The notes under the pieces were generated by a model. The model was not told the DNA's origin. It worked only from the letters and a program-made list of their open reading frames with translations, and made no database searches. This document shows, one piece after another, positions 1 to 44,728 of a stretch of DNA of 59,807 bases. Numbering within the stretch: the first letter of the stretch is position 1; every line of letters starts with the position of its first letter. Source of the stretch: a virus; the IMG/VR virus record IMGVR_UViG_3300045988_174840, one strand, 5' to 3'. A program made the position numbers and the translations under genes.

Positions 1-55
1 AACTTGTTACAATGGTATTATATCGCACCTTAGCTTAAAAGTCAAGCATTTTCGT

Positions 56-235
56 TTATTTTTTAAAATCTTTTAACTGCTGGTTTGTAGACAACTCTTT
101 AATTTTATATTTATGTAATCTGTTGTTTAAACAATAAATGCATGAACCATGGTTTCTGCACTGCATTGATATTGCTTTTGCTTTGCGGTATTCTTTTCTA
201 TGCTCTTTACCACTTTTAATTGCTTTGTCCATCAT
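56..235 (-). CDS. small Cys-rich hypothetical protein (59 aa, MMDKAIKSGKEHRKEYRK...CRNHGSCIYC)
   Basis: Minus-strand ORF below the 60-aa cutoff of the track. The ATG is preceded by an AGGTGG ribosome-binding site. Found by manual translation. Confidence 0.35.
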   Translation of the reverse strand: MMDKAIKSGKEHRKEYRKAKAISMQCRNHGSCIYCLNNRLHKYKIKELSTNQQLKDFKK

Positions 236-252
236 GTTTAACCACCTACTTT

Positions 253-726
253 CTATAAGAAATTTTTTAATACTTCCATGATATTGTTTACATCAAAACT
301 ATTTTTGCCCCACTCTTTTCTATTGCGTTCCTCGTCATCAAAAAGCCATCCCTTACAATCAACGACAGTACTTTTTGGTGTACCATAGTTTACAATTTTG
401 ATTTCATCCCATTCAATACTAGGCAAGTGTTTTTCAAGCCATGCAAGTTTTACACTTGTTACCGCCGTATTATAAGAAGCTGACCCGCTTTTACTTAACC
501 AGCTTACAATACCGATTCTATAGCCATTAGCTTGTAACTTGTGAAGCACTCTTGCGAAAGCTGAAAAATTGAAAAGCGGTTTTGCTACTTTGTATGGTGT
601 AGTATCTTCTTTTTCCAAATATGCTAACCAGTTTTCCACGCCGTAGAAATTAGCAAGTGTGCCGTCCATGTCAAAATAAATAGTTCCCTTTGTGTTCATC
701 ATTTCTTTAATTGTATTATTCATCAT
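253..726 (-). CDS. HAD-superfamily 5'(3')-deoxyribonucleotidase-like hydrolase
   Basis: Track ORF 253..738. HAD motif I FDMDGTLA (DxDxT) lies near the N-terminus. The track start is TTG; the first ATG (MMNNTIK) at 726 follows an AAGGGAAGGA ribosome-binding site. Confidence 0.6.
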   Translation of the reverse strand: MMNNTIKEMMNTKGTIYFDMDGTLANFYGVENWLAYLEKEDTTPYKVAKPLFNFSAFARVLHKLQANGYRIGIVSWLSKSGSASYNTAVTSVKLAWLEKHLPSIEWDEIKIVNYGTPKSTVVDCKGWLFDDEERNRKEWGKNSFDVNNIMEVLKNFL

Positions 727-844
727 AATATCTACCAATCCTTCCCTTTTTGATTATCGCAAGTGCTTTGCGATTGACCGACCAATGATTATGTGAACCT
801 TGCTTTGTTTCTGTTTTTTAAGTTTAATGTCCTTCGACAAGTAT

Positions 845-873
845 ATATTACTACATCTTAGCGAAAAAGTCAA
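845..873 (-). promoter_or_regulatory. sigma-A-type promoter (TTGACT-17-TAATAT) for the HAD hydrolase gene, followed by a leader with a 7-bp hairpin
   Basis: Reverse complement reads TTGACT, a 17-nt spacer, then TAATAT. The leader contains the hairpin ATCGCAA-AGCAC-TTGCGAT. Confidence 0.5.
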
Positions 874-1170
874 ATTTATTTTTTATTGTGCAAAGTGATG
901 AAAATTTTACATAAAAATCATAGTATTTTTGTTAAAATGTACAAATGTAGAAAAATAATGCGGATTTAGGCAGATTTTTGTGCATTTTGCTATCTTAAAT
1001 ATCACATATTGTGTTTCTGCGTGTCAAAAAAGGTATGATTTTTTATTAAAATTTCGTCACTTTGCACAAGGTGTAGAAAATCTTAGCATTATTTTATTAA
1101 ATTTTGTACATTTTGTACACCATGTCAAAAAATGGGATTTTTTTAATTTATTTTTTGTGCAAATTGCCTA

Positions 1171-1200
1171 TTGACAAAAAGGTGCTAGATGTGGTATAAT
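1171..1200 (+). promoter_or_regulatory. consensus promoter P1 (TTGACA-17-TGG-TATAAT, extended -10)
   Basis: Exact TTGACA and TATAAT hexamers with a 17-nt spacer and TGn. The promoter reads into the GC hairpin CGGGGTGCCCCG at 1208..1219. Confidence 0.7.
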
Positions 1201-1245
1201 AAAATTTCGGGGTGCCCCGACCCCGAACGGAATTCGTCTACTTCC

Positions 1246-1274
1246 ATTATAGCATACTCGAGCCACCTTGTCAA
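1246..1274 (-). promoter_or_regulatory. consensus promoter P2 on the minus strand (TTGACA-17-TATAAT), left arm of an inverted repeat
   Basis: Reverse complement of 1246..1274 reads TTGACA, a 17-nt spacer, then TATAAT. It is convergent with P1 across the 1208..1219 hairpin. Confidence 0.65.
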
Positions 1275-1332
1275 GAGAAAAAATGCACAAATTTTAGGAT
1301 AAAAATTTTGAAAAATTTGTGCATTTTTTCTC

Positions 1333-1361
1333 TTGACAAAATGTCTCAACTATGCTATAAT
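1333..1361 (+). promoter_or_regulatory. consensus promoter P3 (TTGACA-17-TATAAT), right arm of the inverted repeat
   Basis: Exact hexamers with a 17-nt spacer. The predicted transcript starts in the GC-rich hairpin 1366..1398, which contains the perfect palindrome GCTCGCGAGC. Confidence 0.7.
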
Positions 1362-1445
1362 GGAAGGCTCGGCTCGCATGGGCTGCTCGCGAGCCGGCTA
1401 TTATAACACATTTTCCGCGACTTGTCAACCCCTTTTAAAAAATTT

Positions 1446-1522
1446 TTTTATTTTCGTCATTTTGCATAAAAATAAAATTCAGCATTTTGCACAAATTTTA
1501 TTTTCGTCATTTTGCATAAAAA
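1446..1522. repeat. two copies of a 27-bp direct repeat TTTTATTTTCGTCATTTTGCATAAAAA, 50 bp apart
   Basis: Identical copies at 1446..1472 and 1496..1522. A related copy (TTTCGTCACTTTGCACAA) sits at ~1052..1073. Confidence 0.8.
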
Positions 1523-1549
1523 AACAAAAGCCTAAATTATATAGGCTTT
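1515..1549 (-). terminator. Rho-independent terminator for minus-strand gene 1568..1774; may also stop plus-strand transcripts from P1 and P3
   Basis: Hairpin AAAGCCTA-AATTATA-TAGGCTTT, followed on the minus strand by TGTTTTTTTATG. Confidence 0.65.
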
Positions 1550-1567
1550 ATCATTACTCTTATTAAG

Positions 1568-1774
1568 TTATTTAGTATTACATTTACATTTTGCTTCTGT
1601 AATAATTTCTGTCTGATTAATTTCTGTATTGCTATTGTTATTAAAAAAATGGTCTGAGCCTTTTGCTAAAAAAACTATTATAGTTGCTAGAATCATTCCG
1701 ATTATAAGAAAACCAATTAGACCATTCAAATCTCTTCTAAATTCTTCATCTGTTGGGGCTTTTTCTTCTCTCAT
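1568..1774 (-). CDS. small membrane protein (68 aa, one transmembrane helix)
   Basis: Track ORF with the hydrophobic segment LIGFLIIGMILATIIVFLA. Confidence 0.45.
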   Translation of the reverse strand: MREEKAPTDEEFRRDLNGLIGFLIIGMILATIIVFLAKGSDHFFNNNSNTEINQTEIITEAKCKCNTK

Positions 1775-1820
1775 TTATTTTTTCCTTTTTTTAGAGTTGT
1801 GAGTTGTGAATTTCATGGAC

Positions 1821-2000
1821 TTAATTATTATTAAGTCCATGAAACTTTTTATTTTCTCGTTTCATTATTGTTTCATAAGCAATCTCTACTATTTCTTTTG
1901 AAATATTTTGATTTTCTGCTATTTTACAGAACATAATCACTGTATCATTTTCAAACCCTTTTACTTTAATTACATTATCCATCATCTCTGTTCTTGTCAT
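1821..2000 (-). CDS. small early protein (59 aa, MTRTEMMDNVIKVKGFENDTVIMFCKIAE...)
   Basis: The first 7 codons of track ORF 1821..2021 lie inside the conserved promoter leader. The true ATG at 2000 follows an AAGAGAGG ribosome-binding site. Confidence 0.5.
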   Translation of the reverse strand: MTRTEMMDNVIKVKGFENDTVIMFCKIAENQNISKEIVEIAYETIMKRENKKFHGLNNN

Positions 2001-2032
2001 TATTGCTTTCCTCTCTTTCATTTGATAATGTT

Positions 2033-2061
2033 ATTATACTATAAAGTCGGCTACTTGTCAA
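2033..2061 (-). promoter_or_regulatory. early promoter-leader cassette copy (TTGACA-17-TATAAT plus leader AACATTATCAAATGAAAGAGAGG)
   Basis: Reverse complement shows the consensus hexamers. The leader is shared with cassette copies at 2956, 3438, 3784, 4170, 4921 and 5977. Confidence 0.7.
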
Positions 2062-2159
2062 CTACATTTTTTAAATGTTTAATTGCTTTTTCTCATTTTT
2101 ACTATCTTTTTCTTTTTTCTTTGTCGCATGAGTTTTTAAAACTCATGCGACTTTTACTA

Positions 2160-2285
2160 TTATTTTATTACTACTGCGTAAGCAAGTTCTACTGTTGTAT
2201 TTGAAACTTCACTTTCTGCTAATTTACAAAACCAGATTGTCAGTTCATCTTCAAAGCCTCTTGCTTTAATCACATTGTCCGTCAT
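2160..2285 (-). CDS. truncated paralog (41 aa, MTDNVIKARGFEDELTIWFCKLAESEV...) of the 1821..2000 protein
   Basis: Manual translation. It shares DNVIKxxGFExxxxIxFCKxAE with the neighbouring gene and has its own promoter at 2318..2346. Confidence 0.4.
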   Translation of the reverse strand: MTDNVIKARGFEDELTIWFCKLAESEVSNTTVELAYAVVIK

Positions 2286-2317
2286 TTCTTTTTTTACTGT
2301 TGTCTTTGACTGTTTTT

Positions 2318-2346
2318 ATATTATCACAAAAGCTTGATTTTGTCAA
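2318..2346 (-). promoter_or_regulatory. promoter (TTGACA-17-TAATAT) for the 41-aa paralog
   Basis: Hexamers found on the reverse complement. Confidence 0.5.
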
Positions 2347-2364
2347 GTTTTTGTGATATTTTTT

Positions 2365-2697
2365 TTACTTTTTTTGTTTAAAATTACTATGTAATTCAAT
2401 TACTTTACCGCAGTTGTCACAAGTCCAATAGTAAATTGTTCCGACATTTTTTATATAGTCTGCGTTTGCAAATCTCCATTTATTTCCGCACTCTACACAG
2501 TAGCCATTGTTCCAATTTACTTTATCGGATGATTGTTCAATTTTAATTAGCCATGTAAAAGTGCATCCTATTAAAAGAGCTAAGATAATGCCAATTACTG
2601 TTTTAATGATTCGATTTCCATTTTCATAAAAGATGTTTACCATAAATCCGCCAACGAATATTGTCATAAGAATCGTTACTAAAATTGTTCTAATCAT
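2365..2697 (-). CDS. membrane protein with two transmembrane helices and a C-terminal CxxC...CxxC zinc ribbon (110 aa)
   Basis: Hydrophobic N-terminal half, then CVECGN...CDNCGK. A promoter TTGACA-17-TATTAT lies upstream at ~2730-2760. Confidence 0.5.
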   Translation of the reverse strand: MIRTILVTILMTIFVGGFMVNIFYENGNRIIKTVIGIILALLIGCTFTWLIKIEQSSDKVNWNNGYCVECGNKWRFANADYIKNVGTIYYWTCDNCGKVIELHSNFKQKK

Positions 2698-2720
2698 TTT
2701 TTAATTCCTTCTTTCTTTAT

Positions 2721-2921
2721 TTATTTATTATTACTATCTCTCTTAACTATATTTATAATATCACATTTTTCGGTTTTTGTCAAGCCTTTTTCCTCTTTTA
2801 AAATTCTATTGATTTGGTTTTTAATATCCTTCAAATCTTCAAGACTGCAATAAACTTTATCACCCCAACCGCCTTTAATTGTATAAGGATAACTCTTATC
2901 ATCACTTTTTTCTACTGTCAT
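2721..2921 (-). CDS. small early protein (66 aa, MTVEKSDDKSYPYTIKGGWGDKVYC...)
   Basis: The first 21 codons of track ORF 2721..2984 are the translated promoter cassette. The true ATG at 2921 follows the conserved leader and an AGAGAGAGG ribosome-binding site. Confidence 0.5.
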   Translation of the reverse strand: MTVEKSDDKSYPYTIKGGWGDKVYCSLEDLKDIKNQINRILKEEKGLTKTEKCDIINIVKRDSNNK

Positions 2922-2955
2922 TTTTATCAACCTCTCTCTTTCATTTGATAATGTT

Positions 2956-2984
2956 ATTATACTATAGGTCTTAACAAAAGTCAA
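2956..2984 (-). promoter_or_regulatory. early promoter-leader cassette copy (TTGACT-17-TATAAT). The -35 sits inside hairpin GGTCTTAAC-AAAA-GTCAAGACC, followed on the plus strand by TATTTTATTTTTT
   Basis: Seen on the reverse complement. The hairpin plus T-run reads as a terminator on the plus strand. Confidence 0.65.
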
Positions 2985-3002
2985 GACCTATTTTATTTTT
3001 TC

Positions 3003-3404
3003 TCAAATTTTTGTTATTCCTCTGTCTTTCAAATATTCACAAAAACTATCAGAGTCAAGCATTTTCGCAATGTCTTTCATTGAAACGTTCATTTTGTTAT
3101 ACACACAACGTACTTCAATAGGTTTAAATTTTTTTTCTGTAATAGCTGTTGATAAAGAATCTTCTACATTGCTTAATCGAACAACTCTTTTTTTAAAGAA
3201 ATTTTTTGAAATTTCAGCATTTATAAATAAACCTTTTTCAACTAAATTAATCAGTTCGTCAAAAGTGTTGATTGTAAAGTTCCTTGTCTTTGCTTCTGCT
3301 TCTTCTGGGGTAAGGTATCTTACGTGTTCCCAGATACTTGTATCAACAAAGTTTTTTCGACCCTCTATTCTGTACTTGAATCTATAATCATAAACTTCTT
3401 TCAT
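3003..3404 (-). CDS. hypothetical early protein (133 aa)
   Basis: Track ORF 3003..3413 starts at TTG. The ATG (MKEVYDYRF) at 3404 follows the leader AAGAAAGAGGTTGATAAAA. Confidence 0.5.
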   Translation of the reverse strand: MKEVYDYRFKYRIEGRKNFVDTSIWEHVRYLTPEEAEAKTRNFTINTFDELINLVEKGLFINAEISKNFFKKRVVRLSNVEDSLSTAITEKKFKPIEVRCVYNKMNVSMKDIAKMLDSDSFCEYLKDRGITKI

Positions 3405-3437
3405 TTTTATCAACCTCTTTCTTTATTTTCTATATTT

Positions 3438-3466
3438 ATTATACAGTATCTATTGACTTTTGTCAA
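3438..3466 (-). promoter_or_regulatory. early promoter-leader cassette copy (TTGACA-17-TATAAT)
   Basis: Reverse complement. The same downstream element TCAAGACCTATTTTATTTTTT occurs as at 2984. Confidence 0.65.
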
Positions 3467-3481
3467 GACCTATTTTATTTT

Positions 3482-3742
3482 TTATTTTGGAAGGATAACC
3501 TCAGCTTCGACAGGTACTACTTTCTCAGATGCCATAAAAGCTTTCATATATCCCGTAGCAAGATTAACCGCAATGAATCTACCTTTTTGTCTTTCCAAGA
3601 AAAAACCGCTATTCCTATCAATAATCATGTACAACCCGATTTCATCAATACCACCTCTTTGACTAATACTGAAAAAAGTTTTTCCTATTGTCAAGTCATT
3701 GATGCAAATTTCTGTTGCTTTTTTATCATAGTTGATTTTCAT
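3482..3742 (-). CDS. hypothetical early protein (86 aa, MKINYDKKATEICIND...)
   Basis: Track ORF with the cassette promoter 3784..3812 upstream. Confidence 0.5.
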   Translation of the reverse strand: MKINYDKKATEICINDLTIGKTFFSISQRGGIDEIGLYMIIDRNSGFFLERQKGRFIAVNLATGYMKAFMASEKVVPVEAEVILPK

Positions 3743-3783
3743 TTTTGTTTTCCTCTCTTTTTCTTTCTTTTATTTCTGTATTT

Positions 3784-3812
3784 ATTATATCATGTAGGGG
3801 CTGAAATGTCAA
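3784..3812 (-). promoter_or_regulatory. early promoter cassette copy (TTGACA-17-TATAAT). The -35 is embedded in hairpin AGGGGCTGAAATGTCAACCCCT (3796..3817)
   Basis: Reverse complement. The plus strand shows the hairpin followed by ATTTATTTTTTAAT. Confidence 0.65.
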
Positions 3813-3826
3813 CCCCTATTTATTTT

Positions 3827-4135
3827 TTAATGATTAAACCGCAGATAATTTTTAATCCAGTTTTTACCAAACTCTTTTTCTAACTGTTTTTCCTCTTCTG
3901 GGTTCGTTTCCATGATTGAGATTTTCATAATTGAATCCCAGTCCATAGTTGTAAACCACGTTCCCTCTTTCATGCCTTTACTAAAGTGAAAAGTGTCAAG
4001 AATAAAATCCATTGTTTCCTGTCGTTTAATTGTTTTCATACATTCTTCTAAAGAAAGAACCCGATTGTCAAAAACTGGTTTAGTTTCAAAACCTGTTACT
4101 TTCCATCCGCTAATTTTACTTTTAATTTTTAACAT
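3827..4135 (-). CDS. hypothetical early protein (102 aa)
   Basis: Track ORF 3827..4144 starts at TTG. The ATG (MLKIKSKISGW) follows the leader AAAAAGAGAGGTTGATAAAA. Confidence 0.5.
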   Translation of the reverse strand: MLKIKSKISGWKVTGFETKPVFDNRVLSLEECMKTIKRQETMDFILDTFHFSKGMKEGTWFTTMDWDSIMKISIMETNPEEEKQLEKEFGKNWIKNYLRFNH

Positions 4136-4169
4136 TTTTATCAACCTCTCTTTTTCATTTGATAATATT

Positions 4170-4198
4170 ATTATACACTACTTTTGAAAATCTGTCAA
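4170..4198 (-). promoter_or_regulatory. early promoter-leader cassette copy (TTGACA-17-TATAAT)
   Basis: Reverse complement of TCATTTGATAATATTATTATACACTAC...TGTCAAGAC. Confidence 0.65.
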
Positions 4199-4300
4199 GA
4201 CTTTTTTATTTTTTTCTTAACTATTTTTTTTACTTTCAACCATGTTTTTTGTTGTTGCTTTTTTATCATAATTAATTTTCATTTTAATTACCTCTCTTTC

Positions 4301-4483
4301 TTATTTAATTTCTTTAAAGATACTTTCATCTGTGGCATTACATAACTTATTATTTACGTTATACTTAGCATAAAGCCACTTTTTACAATCCCATTTTAGC
4401 GGACAATGATAACAAGTTGTAGTAAAAGCCGTGGTTTCCATCGGAATTGCAAGAAATATCTTTTTAAGTTTTTTAGTTATCAT
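4301..4483 (-). CDS. hypothetical early protein (60 aa, Cys-containing)
   Basis: Track ORF with a strong AAGGAAGGAG ribosome-binding site. Promoter 4517..4545 lies upstream. Confidence 0.5.
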   Translation of the reverse strand: MITKKLKKIFLAIPMETTAFTTTCYHCPLKWDCKKWLYAKYNVNNKLCNATDESIFKEIK

Positions 4484-4516
4484 ATTATTTTTTTCTCCTT
4501 CCTTTTAACTATCTTT

Positions 4517-4545
4517 ATAATACCATATTAAAATTATTTTGTCAA
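4517..4545 (-). promoter_or_regulatory. promoter (TTGACA-17-TATTAT)
   Basis: Hexamers on the reverse complement. Confidence 0.5.
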
Positions 4546-4624
4546 TCCCCTTTTATAAAAAATTATAAAAAAGGAAGATTTTTTATCTTCCTTTTACTTT
4601 TGTTTTATTCTTGTTTTTTTATTT

Positions 4625-4786
4625 TTATCTTAATAATCTTAATAAATAGTTATTTTCATGCTCTTTCAAAAAAGCGTTAATTTCTTCTATTGTTTCAGCG
4701 TAAATCTCGCCTGTCTCAGTGTCTACAAGCATCAATTTTTTACTTCCTAAAAATAATCCTAAATCTAACATATTTAAGCCCTCCAT
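4625..4786 (-). CDS. small hypothetical protein (53 aa, MEGLNMLDLGLFLGSKKLMLVDTETGEIYAETIEE...)
   Basis: Manual translation of an ORF below the track cutoff. Its start overlaps the stop of the upstream 39-aa ORF (TAATG). Confidence 0.3.
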   Translation of the reverse strand: MEGLNMLDLGLFLGSKKLMLVDTETGEIYAETIEEINAFLKEHENNYLLRLLR

Positions 4787-4905
4787 TAAGAAATTTTTAC
4801 CAGATAACCGTTTGTATTTTTTTCTACTGAAAAAATGTATTGATTATCTTTTAAGTATTTTTTTACAGTTTCAAATGCTTTTCGAGTTGTCAGTAACATT
4901 GTCAT
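4786..4905 (-). CDS. small hypothetical protein (39 aa, MTMLLTTRKAFETVKKYLKDNQYIFSVEKN...)
   Basis: Manual translation. It follows cassette leader ...AAAGAGAGGTAAAGGGAT and a promoter near 4921..4970. Confidence 0.3.
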   Translation of the reverse strand: MTMLLTTRKAFETVKKYLKDNQYIFSVEKNTNGYLVKIS

Positions 4906-5083
4906 ATCCCTTTACCTCTCTTTCATTTGATAATACTATGATACTATATTTCTTTGCTTTTGTCAAGCATTTTAGGAAAATTTTCTAAAGATTTTTTTAT
5001 GCGGATTTCCGCTGGAAAAACCTGAACTTAAAGAGATTATAGGCGAACCGACTCCAGAACTATCAAGTTCGGGAGTCCCTTTT

Positions 5084-5254
5084 TTATTTAAGGAATGATT
5101 CTAAAGCCTTGTAGCATAAATCAGCGTTTTCTTTATCTTTTATGCTAGTACCTTTAGAAAAGTCATTCATAGCGGCTGTCAGTAGTTCTGGTACTGAAAT
5201 AAATTCAAATACCAACTGTAAAGCCGCCAATTCATTAAGATTGACTTTTTTCAT
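5084..5254 (-). CDS. small hypothetical protein (56 aa, MKKVNLNELAALQLVFEFISVPELL...)
   Basis: Manual translation. An AAAGGAGATAAG ribosome-binding site and a TATAAT -10 lie upstream. Confidence 0.35.
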   Translation of the reverse strand: MKKVNLNELAALQLVFEFISVPELLTAAMNDFSKGTSIKDKENADLCYKALESFLK

Positions 5255-5400
5255 CGGTTCTTTCTTATCTCCTTTTTAAATATTTTATTTTCTTTACATT
5301 ATTATTATATCAAATTTTTTAATAAAAATCAAAAAAGATACTTTATCTAAACAAGCAAAGAAAAGGGCTGAACTTATTCCGCCCTTTTCCCGCTTCCCCG

Positions 5401-5667
5401 CTATCCTATTATCTCTGCATTTGTAATAATATCATCTGTCACGTTGTCAGTCCCTAAAGAATCCATGTATAATTTAACTCTATCTTTTGCTTTAAAACCG
5501 TCTCCATAGAAACTCCAAACATGTCCGTAGCTATCCATAACCACCACCTCATCATTAAAAGAGCTAATCACTTTAGCTTCTCTTGTATACTTAGTAAAGC
5601 TACCAAAACCGCAAATACTACTTAAAACTGCACTTACTGCTAATCCTAAAATCACCTTTTTCATCAT
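5401..5667 (-). CDS. secreted or lipoprotein-like small protein (signal peptide MMKKVILGLAVSAVLSSIC)
   Basis: Track ORF 5401..5679 starts at TTG. The first ATG at 5667 is followed by a hydrophobic signal sequence. Confidence 0.45.
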   Translation of the reverse strand: MMKKVILGLAVSAVLSSICGFGSFTKYTREAKVISSFNDEVVVMDSYGHVWSFYGDGFKAKDRVKLYMDSLGTDNVTDDIITNAEIIG

Positions 5668-5669
5668 AT

Positions 5670-5948
5670 CTAACTCCAACCTCTTTCTTTCTTAATCTTT
5701 TCGTATCTTTCTTTTGCTTCTTTTTCAATCTTCTTTTTGTCATACATTCTAATTTTCATTCTAGTATATCCGTCTCTTTTTAAACACCAACGTTCTGTTT
5801 TACGTTGTACTACTATTTTATCAATAGCTCTTTGCTGTACCTCTTGCTTATGAGTGTTGTAATATTTGATACTCTCAATTTCTAATAAAGTACTTATTGG
5901 TCTGTACTTATTGGTTACACTAAACAAAGTGCATTGAATTGTTATCAT
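5670..5948 (-). CDS. hypothetical basic protein (92 aa, K/E/R-rich C-terminus)
   Basis: Track ORF. Cassette promoter 5977..6005 and leader AAAAGAGAGGTGATAAGAAG lie upstream. Confidence 0.5.
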   Translation of the reverse strand: MITIQCTLFSVTNKYRPISTLLEIESIKYYNTHKQEVQQRAIDKIVVQRKTERWCLKRDGYTRMKIRMYDKKKIEKEAKERYEKIKKERGWS

Positions 5949-5976
5949 CTTCTTATCACCTCTCTTTTCAAGTATT

Positions 5977-6005
5977 ATTATACTACCTTATTATACCATT
6001 GTCAA
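5977..6005 (-). promoter_or_regulatory. early promoter-leader cassette copy (TTGACA-17-TATAAT)
   Basis: Reverse complement reads CTTGACAATGGTATAATAAGGTAGTATAATAATACTTGAAAAGAGAGG. Confidence 0.65.
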
Positions 6006-6412
6006 GCGTTTATTTATAGTATTTTTATTCGTCTTAATGCATATTTATTTATGTATATTTATTCACATTGCTAGTTAGCTTTACATATTTTATATTTATA
6101 TCCTTTTATAAATTTTATAAATTAAATTATAAAATAAAATATAATATATCAGTTATTGCATTGTTTTACTTAATATTTATTTAAGCATATCTTTCTTATT
6201 ATACTATTATGTTATTCTATTATAACTATTATAAGACAAGAGTCTTACGTTGAATACACTATTATTATTATTGTAACACTTCTATAAAAGTAATTACATA
6301 ATATAAAATATTATTATACTTATACTTTGTATGTATTGTTATAGTATAATATTATTATACTGTTATTATTATTATTATTATTATCTTTCCTTTATCTTAA
6401 GCTTAATCTCTC

Positions 6413-6441
6413 ATTATAACACCTTTAGCTCATTCTGTCAA
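6413..6441 (-). promoter_or_regulatory. consensus promoter (TTGACA-17-TATAAT) reading leftward into the 6000-6400 AT-rich non-coding block
   Basis: Reverse complement reads TGTCTATTGACAGAATGAGCTAAAGGTGTTATAATGAGAG. The -35 lies within a TGTC-N4-GACA palindrome. Confidence 0.65.
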
Positions 6442-6720
6442 TAGACATTTTACACAATTTTTTCTTTTGATTTTCGTGCAGATTGACCATTGACATTTCT
6501 TGTCTATTGACATTTTGTACAAAAATCAAATTATATTTTTGTATACTTTTACCATTGACAGGACTTGTCAATAGACATAATGCACAAAATTTTCCTTGCA
6601 TTTTTGTGCAATTTTACCTATTGACAAACTCATTTTAGGAAAATATCTTTGTGCATTTTTTACAAAAATTTAGCCAAAAATTTGTGCATTTTGTCTATTG
6701 ACAGGCTTCTCGGAGCGTTG
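6420..6720. repeat. cluster of 7 YTATTGACA sites in both orientations, including two TGTC-N4-GACA palindromes, interleaved with TTTGTGCA motifs
   Basis: CTGTCAATAGACA at ~6436 and ~6566. CTATTGACA at ~6503, ~6618 and ~6695. CCATTGACA at ~6487 and ~6553. Confidence 0.75.
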
Positions 6721-7261
6721 CGAAAGTATACGCTCCGATGGTAGATGGCAAGCTACCAATAGCCAATAAAATTCTAATCTTCTTGCTTTATTTTAATTAT
6801 TTAAAGAATTTATTTTATTAGTTTAACTCTTTCTCCTCTTTATTTAAAATAATGTGTTCAAAATCCTTCTGAACAAAAAACATATCCTCTTTGGAAAATG
6901 ATTTGAAAAATTATTTGTTAGGCGGTGTTTTGTTGCTTCTTACTCAAAAGAAAAGACCAATCTACAGACCATACCCAAACATAATACCCGGGCTATATTA
7001 AAGGATTAAAATTTTTTACTTTTATAAAAAGATAGTGTTCTCCACAATTCTCTCTCCAAAAAAATTTTTAAATCTAAAAATTGAAGAAAATGAAGAAGAA
7101 AAAATTGAAATAATTCTCCTTCCAAAAATTTTAGAATCTAAGAATCTAAAATAAAAACTTTAAGGATTCTAAATATTAAAAAATTTTCTTCTTCTTCTTC
7201 TTTAAAAAATGCGTGAGTGTCAAGTTAATCTCCGAAATACGTTTAAAAGCTTAGTAATCAT

Positions 7262-7486
7262 CTAAAACATCGCGTTTGCCTGTTCATAATATTTTAATTC
7301 TTGAATCCAAGCGATTGGAATTACCATTTCCGCTTTAGCGTATCTTTCTATAGCATCCATGATTTCATGTCTCCTAGTATTGATTATTTCTAATCTAAAA
7401 GTTTCACGCGGAACCAATCCTGCAACTGCAACTGCAACTGTTTTCTTTGCTTTCCCTGTTTCGTTATTCATAGTCATATTACTCAT
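7262..7486 (-). CDS. hypothetical protein (74 aa)
   Basis: Track ORF. Confidence 0.4.
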   Translation of the reverse strand: MSNMTMNNETGKAKKTVAVAVAGLVPRETFRLEIINTRRHEIMDAIERYAKAEMVIPIAWIQELKYYEQANAMF

Positions 7487-7498
7487 ATTATTTTCCTC

Positions 7499-7843
7499 CT
7501 ATTTTACTATTTTAATTACTTTACCATGTTTTCCGCTCATTTTCATTTTCATAATAATCTTTCTAATTATTGCGTCTTTTCCATCATAAAAAAGTATAGC
7601 AAAATCAATATTATCTACCATTTTCTGAATTAATTTATCTATATTGCGATCAAATATATATTCAATAGGAGCACCATTATTTTCTGCCCATATTTTTCCA
7701 ATAGACTCCGAGAGCTTCTTCTCCGTATTCCCGCAAACAACAGTAAACAAGTAACACTGCGTTTCACAGATAAAATCTTCCATAGCTGCGGAGACTAGGC
7801 GATTATCCGCGAAACCGCGACTTCCAAGAATACTAATTCTCAT
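7499..7843 (-). CDS. SLOG/YpsA-like (DUF1273-type) Rossmann-fold protein
   Basis: The pattern ILGSRGF...GN...FAILFYDG...KIIM resembles the B. subtilis YpsA layout (LTGYKAHELGIF...GGAMGVD...ALLAIYDEE). AAGAGGAAAAAGAG ribosome-binding site. Confidence 0.4.
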   Translation of the reverse strand: MRISILGSRGFADNRLVSAAMEDFICETQCYLFTVVCGNTEKKLSESIGKIWAENNGAPIEYIFDRNIDKLIQKMVDNIDFAILFYDGKDAIIRKIIMKMKMSGKHGKVIKIVK

Positions 7844-7924
7844 CTCTTTTTCCTCTTGTTTTATTTATAAAATAATTATAACAAAAATTTTTTAAAAAAT
7901 CCAATTAAAGTGCTTTAATCAAAT

Positions 7925-7953
7925 TTGACAAAAAAATTTTTTTGTGGTATAAT
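7925..7953 (+). promoter_or_regulatory. consensus promoter (TTGACA-17-TGG-TATAAT) for the morphogenesis operon
   Basis: Exact hexamers with an extended -10, almost identical to P1 at 1171. AAAGGAGA ribosome-binding site and ATG at 7981. Confidence 0.65.
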
Positions 7954-7980
7954 ATAATTGTAAATTAGAAAGGAGAAATT

Positions 7981-9138
7981 ATGACACCAATAATAATAGA
8001 AGATGAAGCTTTTGAGGAGAATATTTTAGAAGAAGAAAAAACAACAGAAAAACAAATCAAAGAAGAAAATATACAAACTACTATTAAATTAGATTATTCT
8101 TTAGAGACTCCTGAAGAGCGGAATGAATTAGTTAAAAAAATTATAAATAATACTCCTTCTGAGCAATTAACACCTAGATATTTAGAAATATTGTCAGATT
8201 ACATTATTTTTGCTATGGATAAACAAGAGCGGAAACAAAAGCAAATATTAACTGATAATCACATGGTCACAGTTAACAAAAGAGAAACTTCTTTTGAAGG
8301 ATTAGTTGGTCGCTTAGAGAATGGCGAAGATGGCATTTATAATATGATTGCTAATGATAAGAATATTATCTTTACACCTAAATTTCAAATAACTCAACAA
8401 GATATTGCGGAAATCCCCGAGTTAAAGCAACTTGTAGACGCGATTGCGGAAGTTGAAAAAGCTGAGAAAAAAGCAGTTGGTAAAAAGAAATTTTTATTAA
8501 AAAAGCAACTTATTGCTATGAGACAAGATCAATATGTAATTAGAAGTGCATATAAGCCGCCAATTTATTGTATGAACGCAATTAAAAGTTTTAGCAAAAT
8601 TGATTTTGATGAAAATGTTTCTATTAGCGGAGATGATGAAATTGAAGATAATAGCTTAGTTTCTTTTTTTAATCCTAAGCACGTATCTGCGTTATTATGT
8701 AACTATTCCCGCCTAAAAGAAGATGCATGGGGAAAATTCTATAGTGATTCATACTTTTTAATGGAAGATTTAGATACATTAATAGAAAAGACTTTAAGAG
8801 ACAGCTATCCAATGTATTATGACCTCTTGATTTATAAAATAGATGGAAAACAAAATCTTGAAATTCAAAGCCTATTGAATCAAAAGCATAATGTAAAACA
8901 TTCAGTGGAATATATATCATCTTTGTGGCGGAATAAGATACCTAAGCTATTGTCAGAGCAAGCTCAGGAAGACTACTTAATTTGGTATTATACGACTCAG
9001 AAGAAGGGAAAATGGAAAAAATGTTCCCGCTGTGGGGAAATCAAATTAGCTCATAATAAATTTTTTTCAAAGAATAAGACAAGCAAAGATCATTTTTACA
9101 GTATATGTAAATGTTGTCGAAATAAGAAAAATAAGTAA
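7981..9138 (+). CDS. hypothetical protein with a C-terminal Cys4 zinc ribbon (385 aa)
   Basis: CSRCGEIK...CKCCRNKKNK at the C-terminus. First gene of the late operon. Confidence 0.55.
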   Translation: MTPIIIEDEAFEENILEEEKTTEKQIKEENIQTTIKLDYSLETPEERNELVKKIINNTPSEQLTPRYLEILSDYIIFAMDKQERKQKQILTDNHMVTVNKRETSFEGLVGRLENGEDGIYNMIANDKNIIFTPKFQITQQDIAEIPELKQLVDAIAEVEKAEKKAVGKKKFLLKKQLIAMRQDQYVIRSAYKPPIYCMNAIKSFSKIDFDENVSISGDDEIEDNSLVSFFNPKHVSALLCNYSRLKEDAWGKFYSDSYFLMEDLDTLIEKTLRDSYPMYYDLLIYKIDGKQNLEIQSLLNQKHNVKHSVEYISSLWRNKIPKLLSEQAQEDYLIWYYTTQKKGKWKKCSRCGEIKLAHNKFFSKNKTSKDHFYSICKCCRNKKNK

Positions 9139-24040: not shown

Positions 24041-27000
24041 ATGGCGGCTACAAATCGTATTGATTTTACAGTTGGCTTTAATACAGATCAAAGCGGTTTA
24101 TCAAGTATTAAGAAGGCATTAGAAGAAATTCAAAAAATGACTTCTGGTGATTTGATGAGCTTAAATAAAGGAATGGATTTAAGTGAAGCCAATAGCAGAT
24201 TATCTCAAATAAAAGAATCTGCTAGCCAAGTTCAAAAAGCGTTAGAAAAAGCTTTTAACGCGGATTTAGGAACATTAAATGTATCTAAATTTAACAATGA
24301 ATTAAAAAATTTAGATATAAATAAAATTTACAATGATTTTAATAGTGCGGGTTCGGCAGGACAAACCGCTTTTAAAAATATGACAACTCAGATTTTAACT
24401 ACTAATATGCAGTTAAAACAAACTCATAGCTTCTTAGAGAATATGGCTACAACTCTATCCAATACTATTAAATGGAATATTGCATCTGGAGCCATGAATG
24501 CATTAACTAATAACGTTCAACAAGCAGTTAATTATGTTGAAAAATTAGATACTTCATTAAATAATATTAGAATTGTAACTGGCAAATCTGCGGAAGAAAT
24601 GCGTGATTTCGCGGAATCTGCGAGTCAAACCGCTCAAGAGCTATCCGCGAGTACAAGAGATATAACTGAAGGAGCTTTAATTTATTATCAACAGGGTGAT
24701 ACAGATGAAGATGCTCTTGCTAAAGCTGAGATTACTCAGAAAACCGCGAATGTATCTCAGATTAGCTCAGAACAGGCTGCGGAATATTTAACTGCGGTTT
24801 GGAATGGTTATAAAGTAGCTAATGAAGCTGCGGCTGAAGGAATGGACGTTTATGAAAAATATGTAGACAAGTTAGCGGCTGTAGCAGCTACAACTGCGTC
24901 AGACTTAGCTGAATCTTCTATGGCTATTTCTAAAGTAGCTTCCGCAGCAAGTTCTATGGGCGTTGATTTTGACCAATTAAATGCTCAGATTGCGACTATT
25001 ATTTCTGTTACCCGCCAAGCACCAGAATCAGTAGGTACAGCCCTAAAGACAATTTATGCTCGTATGGGTGATCTAGCTGTTGATGGTGTTGATGAATTTG
25101 GAGTTTCTCTTGGTGAAGTTTCTGGAAAGATGAAAACAATGGGCATTGACATCTTAGATGAGAATGGTCATCTAAAAGAGATGGGAAATGTTATTGAAGA
25201 AGTAGCAGGTAAGTGGAGTACTTGGACAGACGAACAAAGACAAGCGGCAGCAGTTGCAATCGCAGGTAAGAGACAGTATAATAACTTAATTGCTTTATTT
25301 GATAACTGGGATATGTATACTGATGCTTTAGATACTTCTAAAAATGCATTGGGAACTCTTGAAGAACAACAGGACATCTATTCTGAAAGAACAGAAGCTC
25401 ATATCCAAAGAATGAGAACTACTTTCGAGGATTTATATGATTCTTTATTAAAGCCAGAAGCCATTAATAAAGTTGTCGACGGAATTACTTTTGTTGTAGA
25501 TAAAATTGCAACATTAGTTGACAATATCGGCGGTGGCAAGACTGTTCTTGCTGAGCTAGGATCTTTAGGTGTAAGAGTATTTAGTAAACAAATCGCTGGT
25601 GGTATTTCTACAACTATAGCTAATTTTAAAAATGTAAAATCTAATGCTGAACAACTTAATGCTCAATTAGAGATTTTACAACAGTATAAAGGATTATCTG
25701 CGTTAGATGAAGATACTAAAGAATTAGTAAATATGAAGCAAGAGATTGTGGATTTAGGATCTGTTGCTACTACTGAACAACAGAACATTGCTAACGGTTT
25801 TATTGAACAAATAAATGCTTTGCAAAATCAAAAGAAACAGTTAGAAGAGAATGAGGAAGCTGCAAAAAATCTTTATAAGGCTTTAACTAATGAAGAATTA
25901 GACTTAGATAGCCTTAGAGGAAAGGGCGAAGAAGCAGAAAAAACAGATACATATAAAGAAGTTCAGAAGCAAGTAGCTGAGACTCAGAAGCAGTATAAAA
26001 GTTTGAATAAAGAAGCTTCTAATTATGCTGGGGCTTTGACTTTAGCTACTTTTAATCAAAGACAAGCTTCTAAAGATAGTTCAAAGCAAGAAGAGGCAAT
26101 TAAATCTTATGAAGCTTTAACTATCGCTGTAAAAAAATATAATGATGAAGTAAAAAAAATAGTTTCTTCAAGTCCAGAAGTCGCAAGTGCTTATGAAAAT
26201 TTTAATAAGAAATTAAAAGAGTATAGTGAACTCACAGGAAATGCTGAAAAATCGGTAGGAGAATTAATTGCGACTTACCCAGAATTAAGCAAAGCTTTCA
26301 AAGAGGTAACAGAAGTAAGTAAAGATTATGCTAGCCAAGCGGCAAGTGATGCACAGAAGGTCATGAAAACTGCACAAGATGTCGCTGCAGGGATAGGGGA
26401 AAAAGTAAAAGAAAAATTAGATGAGTCTCGCTCTGCATGGAAAAGCTTTATAGATGATGTAAGAAATACTGCGGTTATTCAATCAGCCCTAGACATTGCG
26501 GGTTCTATTGGAGAAATAGGTTCTTCTATAGTTAGTTTAAAAGGAATATGGGATGTTTTTTCAGATGATTCTTTATCTATAACAGAAAAATTAGGACAAT
26601 CATTTACTGTTTTGCTTTCTACTTTACCACTTCTCATAGATGGGATTCAAGGACTTCGAGCAGGTCTTATAACTTTGGCTCAAAATGCAATTCCAGCTTT
26701 AGCTGGCTCTTCTTTGACTGCGTGGGAAGCGATTGGAGCATTATTTTCAGCCTCTTGGATTGGTTGGGCTGCGGCGGCAGTAGGTGCGATTGCACTAGTA
26801 GTATTCGCTATAGATCATTTTACGGTAAGTGCAAAAGAGGCAAAAGAAGCTTTAGAGAGTCAATTTGAAGAGTATGAAAAAGCTCAACAGGAAGTAGATG
26901 AATTAAATTCTAAGTTAGAAACAACACAAGAAAGATTAAAAGAATTATATCAAATTTCTCCAGATGAGCTTACTCTTGCACAAAAAGAGGAACTAAAAAC

Positions 27001-42704: not shown

Positions 42705-44728
42705 GATATCCTTATTTAAAAGACTCTTCTTTTTTAAAAGAAATTGATAAATTAAAAATAAAGGAGCAATTTGTAAAGATTATATTATTAGATTTTTATG
42801 AGAACCCAATAAGAGAAATACAGGGAAAAGCTATAAGTGGTAGCTTAAATTTAGAAGGGGAATCAAATATTAGAAGGACTTGCAATTTAACTATGGTTGC
42901 AAGTCCTTTTGAAAATGATCTAACTAATATAAATAATCTTATTTCTATAAATAAAAAGATTCAATTAGAAATAGGAATTTTAAATACTACAAAAAAATAT
43001 CAAGAGTATAAAATAATCTGGTTTCCGCAAGGTATTTTTGTTAATATTAACTCATCTATTTCACATTCTACTAGTGACGTAACTATATCATTACAGATGA
43101 AAGATAAAATGTGTTTACTTAATGGAGAGTGCGGAGGCATTATTCCTGCTTCTACAACTTTTCACGAATATGAGACAACTGATGAAAATGGTAATACAGT
43201 AATAAGTAATCCAACAATTTATCAGATTATTCAAGAGGTAGTTAATCATTTTGGCGGAGAACAGCTAAGTAAAATTATTATTAGTGATATTGATCTCCGC
43301 ATTAAGAAGGTTATGAAATGGACAGGAAGTTCTCCTTTCTACTTGATAAAAAAAATGAAAAATAATACTATTCAATATTTGCCTACTACTAACGCAGATG
43401 AACTTACAAAAGAAGATGTTCAAGAGTATAAAATATATGAATATGGAGAAGATATAGGATATGTATACACAGACTTCGTCTATCCAGGAGAATTAATTGG
43501 AGATGCTGGAAGCACTGTATGTGATATTTTAGACTCTATTAAAGACACTTTAGGGAATTATGAATATTTTTATGATGTAGAAGGAAATTTTATTTTTCAA
43601 GAAATTAAAAATTATTTAAACAATTCTCAAACAAAAGTTGAATTAAATAATATGACAAATGACAATTATTTAATTGATATGAGTAAAGGCAAGTCAGTTT
43701 ATACTTTTGATGATAGTTGTTTGGTTACTTCTTATTCAAATAGCCCGCAATATGGAATGATAAAAAATGATTTTATAGTATGGGGTATGAAAGAAAATGA
43801 GAATGGAAACACAATGCCTATTCGTTATCATTTAGCTATTGATTCTAAGCCTAAAGTTGGAAATACTTATAAATGTTTTTTCTATGAAGATCCAGATGAT
43901 AAAATTAAAAAGGCTAAATGCCCTATTACTTTTCCTACTTTTTCTGACTTTCCAAAGGAAGGTAAAGCAGATGTTTTTTACATGGCTAAAGATTCAGGTA
44001 TAATATATAAATGGGTTACTTCAGAAAATGGAGATGAAAAATATATTGCTATAGAGAATCAATTAACTTCCATTATTACTTCTGATTGGCGGACTGAGTT
44101 ATATCTATCTGGTGTTAACGGAGAGCCTTTAGGTTCAGATTCTAATTATTATTATACTGAGCTATTGAATGAGTGGCCCAAGCTCTATGATATTGAGAAC
44201 GGGAAATTTTATGATGAAAATTTAAAGACACCAAGTGATATAGATTATTTTTTAGATTTTATAGACTCTTCAGCGTCAATTTCTGAGCTTAGTATATCTA
44301 ATATAGGAAGAAGAACTAAAGTTATTAACGATGATAAGATAAACTGTATTTTTGAGCCAGAGATTCCAGACTTAGTATTGTTAAATTTAGCGGATAAGAA
44401 TGTCGAAGAGCTAAGGACAGAATGTGATAACAAAGGACAAGATTATGTACAACTGGAAGATAGAATTTTTAATATGATTGTTGCAGGAGGAAAATCTAAT
44501 TCCGCGTATAATATGGTTCGAGAACTTCTATATCAATATACTAGTTATAATGAAAGTATTACAATAGATGCATTACCAATTTATTATTTAGAGCCTAATG
44601 TTAGAATTACAGTAAGAGATAGTCTAAGTGGAATCTACGGAGACTATATGATAAAAAGTATTTCTCTTCCATTAGACATATCTAGTACAATGTCGATATC
44701 TTGTACAAGAGCTTTAGAAAGATTTTAA
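42701..44728 (+). CDS. baseplate protein, hypothetical (675 aa)
   Basis: Track ORF overlapping the upstream stop. Confidence 0.4.
   Translation: MRYPYLKDSSFLKEIDKLKIKEQFVKIILLDFYENPIREIQGKAISGSLNLEGESNIRRTCNLTMVASPFENDLTNINNLISINKKIQLEIGILNTTKKYQEYKIIWFPQGIFVNINSSISHSTSDVTISLQMKDKMCLLNGECGGIIPASTTFHEYETTDENGNTVISNPTIYQIIQEVVNHFGGEQLSKIIISDIDLRIKKVMKWTGSSPFYLIKKMKNNTIQYLPTTNADELTKEDVQEYKIYEYGEDIGYVYTDFVYPGELIGDAGSTVCDILDSIKDTLGNYEYFYDVEGNFIFQEIKNYLNNSQTKVELNNMTNDNYLIDMSKGKSVYTFDDSCLVTSYSNSPQYGMIKNDFIVWGMKENENGNTMPIRYHLAIDSKPKVGNTYKCFFYEDPDDKIKKAKCPITFPTFSDFPKEGKADVFYMAKDSGIIYKWVTSENGDEKYIAIENQLTSIITSDWRTELYLSGVNGEPLGSDSNYYYTELLNEWPKLYDIENGKFYDENLKTPSDIDYFLDFIDSSASISELSISNIGRRTKVINDDKINCIFEPEIPDLVLLNLADKNVEELRTECDNKGQDYVQLEDRIFNMIVAGGKSNSAYNMVRELLYQYTSYNESITIDALPIYYLEPNVRITVRDSLSGIYGDYMIKSISLPLDISSTMSISCTRALERF

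Follow-up and report, generated by a model that had tools for sequence, protein, structure and literature searches.

What is the role of GC-rich palindromes placed directly behind promoters in the AT-rich early region of a phage? This question is raised by a locus in the virus record IMGVR_UViG_3300045988_174840 (IMG/VR), of which a stretch of 59,807 nucleotides (nt), hereafter the window, was analyzed. Two GC-rich palindromic elements, i.e., element 1 and element 2, are found there just after the predicted starts of two rightward promoters, P1 and P3 (Table 1). An earlier note, written from the letters alone, had described them and offered four options: operators of a dimeric regulator, 5' stabilizing stem-loops, recognition sites for a nuclease or methylase, and, for element 1 on the minus strand, a terminator or attenuator. 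Its coordinates for both elements and for the palindrome inside element 2 were exact. The placement also agreed with the ends of the -10 hexamers: the P1 hexamer ends at 1200 and element 1 pairs from 1206, and the P3 hexamer ends at 1361 and the stem of element 2 begins at 1370, i.e., stem onset is 6-9 nt past the hexamer, with the starts themselves being predicted. In sliding windows, the two elements were the most GC-rich non-coding DNA of the window, and the one stretch that compares with them (51332-51371) is coding DNA, at the C-terminal end of a dUTPase-like gene. The GC islands thus stood as described, although the surrounding GC content, given as ~25%, was slightly low; it is 30.5% overall and 29.5% in 1001-2000.

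The elements are not a product of base composition. The window has ten perfect GC-rich hairpins, whereas 20 first-order Markov simulations averaged 0.5, which bears out the non-randomness that had been claimed. Scatter through coding regions was not seen: of the other eight hairpins, six have the placement of ordinary terminators, at gene ends or between them, one (6710-6738) is associated with operator boxes, and one (42874-42908) is inside a listed open reading frame (ORF). Among the ten, promoters or operator boxes are neighbours of elements 1 and 2 and of the hairpin at 6710-6738.

With moderate confidence, the palindromes are read here as RNA hairpins that belong to a promoter-proximal module, repeated through the early regions of large SPbeta-related gut phages, where they would form the 5' stem-loops of short antisense RNAs. 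A consensus host-type promoter with TGTGCA/TTGACA operator boxes would drive the module, and because the stem lies 7-8 nt (GGAAATT) past the -10 hexamer, the transcript would begin with the hairpin. The promoter would be aimed against the early genes and would give a short non-coding antisense RNA, in which an A-rich linker would connect the GC hairpin at the 5' end with the complement of the neighbour's terminator. Most likely, the hairpin would protect or mark the 5' end of this RNA. Read from the opposite direction, it may serve as a terminator-like hairpin, for which the minus strand of element 1 is the clearest candidate. In the window, the head-to-head pair of modules would come with additional convergent promoters and enclose no gene, so the locus should make short RNAs only. 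The analysis demonstrates the sequence, the matches to four promoters, the family with its covariation and strand lock, and the synteny; we infer the transcription, its exact starts and ends, and the stabilizing or terminating effect.

The module was found in many copies. The 22-mer cassette of P3, TTGTGCATTTTTTCTCTTGACA, was present in 14 viral contigs, 31 metagenome contigs and one contig of a metagenome-assembled genome (MAG); the contexts were otherwise unrelated, and the GC hairpin behind the cassette differed among them. A degenerate scan for TGTGCA-N9-TTGACA-N14-TGnTATAAT recovered at least 120 viral loci, mostly on contigs of 80-400 kb. Among the matches listed, a GC-rich hairpin followed the box-promoter cassette in 91 of 145 distinct downstream sequences, and the rest were ordinary mRNA leaders. 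The median stem of these 91 hairpins was 9 bp with 87% GC, and the median loop was 9 nt. The distance from the -10 hexamer to the stem was bimodal in the 91 copies listed, i.e., 7-8 nt (n=46) and 2-5 nt (n=24). In the first class, F, the stem starts at the predicted +1; in the second class, R, the start falls inside the stem and the same hairpin is read from the facing promoter. Fifty-eight copies in F orientation were aligned nearly without gaps, as GGAAATT-CGGSCCGC-nnCGnnCGTnn-GCGGSCCG-CC-AAA. The order of the family module is TGTGCA box, -35 hexamer, -10 hexamer, GGAAATT, GC stem of 8-9 bp, loop of 9-11 nt, and CC-AAA. Semi-conserved CG steps are found in the loop and CG steps also run through the stem, and the elements are CpG-rich.

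The stem sequences differ between copies and the pairing is kept. Standard pairs filled 88% of the cells in alignment A1 and 92% in the model-aligned A2, against 67% in the shuffles of each, and none of 500 shuffles reached the observed value in either alignment. Cells changed on both sides numbered 85 in A1 against 31 expected from shuffles, and 233 in A2 against 71 expected, whereas slid controls gave paired cells of 34-44% (A1) and 29-44% (A2). Stem positions 10-13 and 16 swap GC, CG, UA and AU with complementarity kept. The kept complementarity, the fixed position at the transcript start, the strand lock and the tolerated inversion or loss of the loop, both described below, together point to an intrastrand hairpin of the transcript and not to a duplex recognition site. 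The differing stem sequences also argue against sequence-specific duplex recognition.

Two of the options in the earlier note lose ground on this evidence. A dimeric regulator is a poor fit because the half-site differs between copies while complementarity is kept, which is unlike a sequence-specific dimer site; the separate TGTGCA/TTGACA boxes upstream of the -35 hexamer are likelier operators. It is extremely improbable that the palindromes are sites of restriction, modification or homing enzymes. The NruI-type TCGCGA is present in element 2 and its close relatives, and CpG-rich elements would suit such an enzyme, but TCGCGA is kept only among the close relatives and is absent from element 1 and most family members. 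No single short site is common to the family, and the covarying stems would be unexplained. A mimic of CRISPR repeats, i.e., an RNA anti-CRISPR, was set aside as well; no common stem sequence exists among the copies and the host repeats are not known. The 5' stem-loop was the best supported option, by compensatory pairing and by a stem at the predicted +1 in 46 of the 91 copies listed. Overall, the 5' stem-loop and the minus-strand terminator of the earlier interpretation held, the operator and the restriction site did not, and a fourth promoter (P4) and the family context had been missed.

A covariance model of the family, R1, found 164 copies (E<=0.01) in 872 kb of related loci, at a density of as many as 10-11 per 13-14 kb. 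Scores of 20-48 bits were reached by the orthologues of element 2 and by over 100 copies from outside the training set. The window contributes 2-3 family copies. Element 2, a training member, scored 33.8 bits (E 1e-8), element 1 scored 9 bits (1200-1227, E 3.2), and the third hairpin scored 10.1 bits (6711-6737, E 1.4). Element 2 is, by sequence, a canonical family member with full flanks, GGAAATT ... CC-AAA, directly after the -10 hexamer, and its fold had an energy of -20.3 kcal/mol (z -3.4). Element 1 is, on the same basis, a short and weak variant; its 5' flank, AAAATTT-CGGGG, is common to other short copies (e.g., L157 and L200). A search within the window for antisense targets of both elements gave chance-level matches only, the best being 14/15 nt at 26890-26904 (E 0.42).

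Known RNA families did not cover the module. The whole window had no Rfam match at the gathering threshold; at an E-value threshold, 800-1700 gave only generic long-hairpin and microRNA-like matches to the inverted repeat 1241-1366, and 14 related loci gave nothing. Model R1 had no hits in SPbeta or in the cultured relative, Enterocloster phage PMBT24. In the literature searched on face-to-face promoters or early-promoter stem-loops in SPbeta-like phages, no description of the hairpin element was found. On sequence comparison, the many-copy hairpin family linked to a promoter cassette in uncultured gut phages is new and well supported.

As an observation in its own right, PMBT24 (L275/L276) carries two near-identical, unrelated promoter-plus-GC-hairpin units at ~2139 and ~73578 on the minus strand. 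Each unit is composed of TTGACT-N16-TATAAA followed by TCCCCGGTG...CACCGGGGG. PMBT24 has, in addition, a gene for a YonO-like RNA polymerase, which its annotation calls 'RNA-dependent RNA polymerase'.

The copies are locked to one strand. In 18 loci with at least three aligned copies, 84 of 84 copies were on one strand at a median spacing of 1.39 kb, and the F orientation is antisense to the early genes. At most forward-facing copies, a convergent ORF ends ~25-60 nt from the hairpin, and a co-directional ORF is rare. In F order, the typical unit begins with the next gene's promoter pointing away, the operator boxes and the F promoter, and continues with the hairpin, CC and an A-rich linker, and the preceding gene's terminator with its stop codon within ~25-60 nt. 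The RNA predicted from the F promoter is ~70-80 nt long; it would start with a GC hairpin and end in another hairpin, which complements the terminator of the neighbouring mRNA. Among 132 distinct copies, a full F promoter was found at 72, a facing R promoter at 41, and both at 19, as in the window.

The same layout can be read from the gene side, i.e., the hairpins may be boundary elements for gene-sense transcription. Each would then be a second terminator or insulator behind the early gene's own terminator and would block read-through ahead of the following operator-controlled promoter region, and the antisense promoter would be secondary or a collision aid. We regard this as rather unlikely. 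The copies are strand-locked to the genes, between one gene's terminator and the next control region; the hairpin abuts the stop codon and is the sole hairpin after the gene in L006 and L153; a U run often follows copies read in gene sense (L014, L032, L247 and L258); and copies persist where consensus promoters are lost. In the window, the minus strand of element 1 fits the terminator pattern, and most other GC hairpins are gene-end terminators. Set against this, the downstream flank of the family in gene sense, AAUUUCC, is a poor U tract, loops of 9-11 nt are long for intrinsic terminators, and there would be no explanation for the conserved GGAAATT or for a stem so tightly set at 7-8 nt from the antisense -10 hexamer. 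The window also has no gene upstream of either element in the leftward direction.

Several further points weigh against the 5' stem-loop of an antisense RNA. All starts and ends are predictions of consensus scans. The pairing signal is partly circular because the hairpins of A1 were picked for folding and those of A2 were fitted to the model; this circularity is limited by the promoter pattern, which defined the sample independently of the hairpin, and by the constant register to the promoter. G.U pairs did not tell the strands apart, with 10 fitting antisense RNA and 17 fitting gene-sense RNA (p=0.25), and the share of Watson-Crick pairs in the stems, 91-95%, would suit a DNA hairpin just as well. 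These two results leave room for a gene-sense terminator or insulator, or for a role at the DNA level. By strict criteria, 24 of the 132 distinct copies have no consensus promoter on either side and still keep the hairpin, and decayed cassette sequence is usually visible upstream of them. The score of element 1 against R1 is low, the sequence after the hairpin in the forward direction is A-rich and not U-rich, and a terminator role of element 2 is weak because neither side has a U run. The semi-conserved CG steps of the loop hint at a specific partner. Lastly, an inversion of element 2 in one relative (L120, below) could be an artefact of amplification or assembly.

A role at the DNA level was weighed as well. 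The elements may form hairpins or cruciforms in single-stranded or supercoiled DNA that are bound by a phage protein, for which the candidates are the regulator that binds the boxes (MrpR, the SPbeta master repressor, folds like a tyrosine recombinase), a factor for replication or priming, and a protein of the nucleoid type. The near-pure Watson-Crick stems fold equally on both strands, TGTGCA/TTGACA boxes accompany every hairpin, including those whose -10 hexamer is gone, and CG steps are semi-conserved in stem and loop. Regular, strand-locked repeats recall stoperators or Chi-like signals, and MrpR binds a repeated element in SPbeta early promoters (PMC10516654). We hold this explanation to be unlikely. 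From the general energetics of extrusion, a stem of 8 bp with a loop of 11 nt makes a poor cruciform. The stem sequence is not conserved, which makes duplex recognition unlikely, loss of the whole loop was tolerated in two independent datasets (L121 and L134), and SPbeta had no R1 match.

Table 1. Coordinates of the GC-rich elements and of the promoters, boxes and repeats around them in the window.
Feature	Position	Strand	Description
Element 1, palindrome	1208-1219		CGGGGTGCCCCG
Element 1, hairpin	1206-1227		TTCGGGGTGCCCCGACCCCGAA; the alternative pairing is the 12-bp palindrome 1208-1219
Element 2	1366-1398		GGCTCGGCTCGCATGGGCTGCTCGCGAGCCGGC
Palindrome within element 2	1385-1394		GCTCGCGAGC; perfect, 10 bp
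Element 2 with flanks	1362-1404	+	full-length family member; stem 1370-1377 with 1389-1396; loop ATGGGCTGCTC
Third, degenerate copy	6683-6738	+	TGTGCA box at 6683; TTGACA at 6698-6703; no -10 hexamer; hairpin TCGGAGCGT...ACGCTCCGA at 6710-6738
TGTGCA operator box	1156-1161	+	9 nt upstream of the P1 -35 hexamer
P1	1171-1200	+	TTGACA, 18 nt, TATAAT, TG extension; perfect sigma-70/sigma-A type; class F
P2	1246-1274	-	perfect promoter opposing P1
P3	1333-1361	+	perfect promoter with the conserved cassette TTGTGCATTTTTTCTCTTGACA; class F
P4	1400-1428	-	perfect promoter opposing P3; predicted start inside the stem of element 2
Hypervariable patch	1229-1245		17 nt, between element 1 and the P2 -10 hexamer
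Large inverted repeat	1241-1366		arms 1241-1295 and 1312-1366, 91% complementary; z-scores -9.3 and -8.4
Iteron-like repeats	1449-1519	+	three 21-nt repeats TTTTCGTCATTTTGCAYAA, 25-bp spacing
Terminator	1527-1549	-	terminator of the leftward early gene 1568-1774

In the window, the consensus scan found four promoters with 12/12 matches within 260 bp. Because P4 is present, each element lies between two convergent 12/12 promoters, with predicted starts ~32 bp apart for P1/P2 and ~25 bp apart for P3/P4. An open complex spans roughly -55 to +20, and thus the two promoters of a facing pair would probably not be occupied together. P1 faces P2, and P3 faces the gene 1568-1774. The distance of P4 from the stem of element 2 is the short one of class R. 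As at most forward-facing copies of the relatives, the promoter P3 is convergent with the 3' end of its neighbour gene. After P1, P2, P3 or P4, no credible ORF was found ahead of the next hairpin or terminator.

The short RNAs expected from these promoters can be outlined from scans and folding. The inverted repeat 1241-1366 is made of the cassettes of P2 and P3 back to back, with boxes TGCACA (1284) and TGTGCA (1318). As RNA, it folds to an AU-rich hairpin of 26 bp followed by a U run, which is the likely stop for the P1 and P4 RNAs; these would be ~120-130 nt long. The P2 RNA would be ~40-45 nt and end at element 1. The P3 RNA would reach up to ~185 nt with the terminator 1527-1549 as its likely 3' end, and its overlap with this terminator is predicted only if the RNA passes P4. 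In its fold, the P3 RNA has a hairpin at each end, the 3' one at 1527-1549, and an AU linker between the two; the P1 RNA, whose 5' hairpin would be element 1 on the plus strand, likewise has a 5' and a 3' hairpin.

Element 1 and element 2 differ as putative terminators. The minus strand of element 1, TTCGGGGTCGGGGCACCCCGAA then ATTTTATTAT, is the pattern of a terminator in the consensus scan, which at that level supports the terminator noted earlier ~35 nt after the P2 start. A GC-rich stem-loop followed by ATTTTATTAT is the likeness to known intrinsic terminators. The stems, 7-8 bp in element 1 and 8 bp in element 2, exceed the 5 bp of GC stem required at least for an intrinsic terminator. 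The loops are 6-8 nt in element 1, 11 nt in element 2 and 9 nt in the family median, and ~3-8 nt is typical of terminators. The U run after the stem is seen only on the minus strand of element 1, i.e., neither on its plus strand nor on either strand of element 2. Element 2 thus differs from known terminators in its 11-nt loop and its lack of a U run, and the family is A-rich after the hairpin in the promoter direction.

The arrangement box-N9-TTGACA of P1 is also found at P2 and P3, and in at least 120 related loci. Clusters of TGTGCA/TGCACA boxes lie at 880-1520 and 6440-6700 and flank the early gene block. The boxes often take the form TTGTGCAA-N6-7-ATTGACAA and overlap the -35 hexamer, and the early-gene promoters of the window have no TGTGCA box. 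The clusters are probably operators, analogous to SPBRE, a repeated element in SPbeta early promoters that is bound by the master repressor MrpR (PMC10516654). SPBRE, a short motif that recurs in numerous early promoter regions of a phage of related type, is the best analogue of the TGTGCA/TTGACA boxes. It is recognized as duplex DNA and is not a hairpin, and it is likened to the boxes by description, not by sequence. The iteron-like repeats at 1449-1519 are, judged from their sequence, probably binding sites of a regulator.

Around the locus, ~700 bp are non-coding and AT-rich with many boxes and iteron-like repeats. Such surroundings would fit a replication origin activated by transcription, in which GC-rich RNA from strong promoters forms an R-loop and primes synthesis both ways from the convergent pairs. 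Transcript-primed origins have precedents in ColE1 RNA II, T4 oriF, the T7 primary origin and the ori transcript of lactococcal phage c2. Nevertheless, the element occurs ten or more times per 14 kb in the relatives, one per early gene unit, and the palindromes have no G/C strand skew and would form a hairpin that competes with the hybrid. Because of this copy number and the missing skew, the origin was set aside as very unlikely.

A second long non-coding stretch, 6050-7260, has runs of ATT/TATTAT and is extremely AT-rich at ~6080-6400. It holds several box-plus-TTGACA sites, the degenerate family hairpin 6710-6738 and, after it, a second small hairpin (GGTAG...CTACC). Within it, 500 nt have no credible ORF, and the stretch is a candidate origin, packaging region or further RNA gene.

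Close relatives, i.e., gut viral and metagenome contigs with near-identical loci from exact-pattern scans, were compared for what is kept. Promoters and boxes were essentially invariant across ten of them, and the changes were confined mainly to two places. The first is element 2. Two loop substitutions were found in L055, the 30-mer GGCTCG...CGAGCC was inverted in L120, and the loss of 13 bp between direct repeats of GCTCGC, independent in L121 and L134, left the perfect palindrome CGGCTCGCGAGCCG. The deletion is present in two independent datasets. The stem potential, i.e., the GC palindrome, was retained in all these variants. The hairpin part of element 1 was 100% conserved in nine close relatives.

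The second variable place is the patch between element 1 and P2, which has six substitutions in 17 nt against most relatives and is flanked by invariant promoters. By prediction, the P2 RNA starts with these ~17 nt, and the patch could be a variable small-RNA seed or the result of gene conversion. Two metagenome contigs end inside the module, L139 at window position 1271 (the P2 -35 hexamer) and L149 at 1379 (the loop of element 2). These ends suggest that the inverted repeats break assemblies and call for caution with the inversion in L120.

In the L122-family loci of another phage lineage (L162, ~196-300), the hairpin CGCGCGC-CAGGACCGT-GCGCGCG is without its loop in one contig, which leaves (CG)n. 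This loss parallels the deletion in L121 and L134. The adjacent terminator hairpin of that lineage has U.G and G.U pairs only as read from the facing promoter, which shows the direction in which it works.

Inversion and deletion between direct repeats are rearrangements typical of palindromes. They would fit a REP-like selfish or neutral palindromic repeat that spreads with duplicated promoter cassettes and early genes and has only incidental effects on RNA, as would the many intergenic copies adjoining gene 3' ends and mosaic early regions built on repeated promoter-leader segments. The likeness to REP/BIME and Correia elements lies in multi-copy, GC-rich imperfect palindromes in transcribed intergenic DNA by gene ends, which are prone to rearrangement and able to stabilize or terminate RNA. 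Here, however, the element belongs to a promoter cassette of fixed spacing, is strictly strand-locked and resides in phage genomes. Many independent compensatory changes maintain the pairing, and the strand lock is perfect. No REP-type GTAG-like head is present in the family consensus, and no RAYT/HUH domain was found among the proteins scanned. A REP-like repeat is accordingly given a poor chance. An integron attC-like site was also set aside; a stem of 8 bp is too short for a recombinase synapse, and the mosaic breakpoints that separate the window from its relatives (1495/1821, ~2022, ~4500 and 7247/7263) do not fall at the hairpins.

For the 5' stem-loop of an antisense RNA, several known systems can be compared. 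Lambda OOP RNA and, from Bacillus prophages, the RNAs SR4/bsrG, SR6/yonT (SPbeta) and RatA/txpA are likewise short non-coding RNAs with their own strong promoter, which is convergent with the neighbour and abuts or overlaps its 3' end and terminator. OOP and the type I antitoxin RNAs also share the architecture of two hairpins, i.e., a 5' stem-loop and a terminator. They differ from the present family in its many copies, about one per early gene unit, its family-specific 5' hairpin and its conserved flanks. The neighbouring genes here are not obviously toxins, no gene of the window is directly opposite element 1, and any regulatory effect, as well as a dependence on RNase III, would be putative. 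A type I toxin-antitoxin pair of P3 and the 68-aa membrane protein gene 1568-1774 was set aside, with this gene being absent from most relatives that keep the module. It encodes a single-pass protein on the minus strand and has its own terminators. It lies inside 1496-1820, an insertion against most relatives that is present in the closest one, L138.

Stable hairpins a few nt from the predicted 5' end are also known from the ompA leader of E. coli, the aprE and ermC leaders of B. subtilis and the early RNA stabilizer of SP82. With the predicted starts, the hairpins of the module would likewise begin within the ~0-4 nt of the 5' end that is typical of such stem-loops. The phage hosts are of the type where 5'-end-dependent RNases act. 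Those stabilizers protect long mRNAs, whereas the present RNA would be short and non-coding, would belong to a repeated family with a semi-conserved loop, and would often be read from a facing promoter as well. Convergent promoters with starts tens of bp apart, overlapping transcripts, interfering polymerases and nearby operators are found in phages 186 (pR/pL) and P2 (Pe/Pc). There, each promoter drives regulatory genes and the strengths are unequal; here, four perfect promoters have no ORFs after them and a GC hairpin lies in the overlap. By these analogies, the hairpin module may work like known 5' stem-loops, cis-antisense RNAs and terminators, in an unusual and highly repeated arrangement.

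The possible roles of the RNA include insulation of early units, antisense control of early mRNAs, and a protein decoy. A bolder version of this reading is offered tentatively, as a possibility. The hairpins may be the sign of a class of phage small RNAs that is widespread and has gone undescribed, with roughly one member for each early gene. In it, an operator-controlled consensus promoter would point against the neighbour's 3' end, and a common 5' handle with a semi-conserved, CG-containing loop would recruit a shared host or phage factor. Such RNAs might act as a programmed, genome-wide shut-off switch of early genes or as an abundant decoy for a host RNA-binding or defence protein, and the gene-less face-to-face copies of the window might form a regulatory hub.

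Should the reading hold, almost all early transcription units in an abundant lineage of human-gut phages would carry an antisense promoter of their own together with a shared hairpin, and this layout of regulation is not known from model phages. The finding would also add a new family of structured RNA, with more than 160 copies and strong covariation, and offer a concrete way into the timing or insulation of early genes in large SPbeta-like phages of Clostridia. The compact promoter-hairpin-promoter parts may serve synthetic biology in Firmicutes. Since the element is easily recognized, it is usable as a marker for the phage lineage and for early regions in metagenomic contigs.

By sequence, the window is a fragment of a large siphovirus-type phage related to SPbeta. 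It encodes a tape-measure protein of 2843 aa. Its portal and large terminase share 44% identity with those of Enterococcus phages H1/EF1, Geobacillus virus E3 and gut phage phAss-1, and ~33-36% with those of SPbeta-type Bacillus and Brevibacillus phages. Genes of an anaerobic ribonucleotide reductase and a guanylate kinase are present. A BLAST search of 800-1600 against cultured phage genomes gave no match. The sole bacterial-genome match to the promoter cassette was one Lachnospiraceae MAG contig, possibly itself a binned phage contig. Clostridia hosts have been assigned to the phAss-1 group (PMC10607447), and the phage lineage probably infects Clostridia. No tRNA or tmRNA was found by a scan of the window. 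In a related phage (L077, ~6330-6410), two hairpin units have a tRNA-like sequence between them, on the gene-sense strand.

The early region, 1-7843, is composed of small leftward genes, nearly each with its own perfect consensus promoter. Eleven 12/12 promoters lie in the first 9 kb, with ten within 1-8000 and eight on the minus strand. Repeated promoter-leader segments (e.g., 2934-2995, 3396-3477, 3736-3823 and 4126-4231) are the only conserved parts of the relatives' mosaic early region and are likely substrates of recombination. A perfect promoter at 7925-7953 leads to a gene for a protein of 385 aa (7925-9138 region), which heads the rightward block of packaging and structural genes. The protein matches the phrog_5767 'sigma factor' family (E 4.5e-52) and no Pfam family. 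At the other end of the window, the gene of DNA polymerase III alpha is split. Its NTPase and finger domains are at 58527-59606 and its helix-hairpin-helix part is at 55906-57003, with a GIY-YIG homing-endonuclease gene (57461-58369) between the two; the N-terminal part lies past the end of the window.

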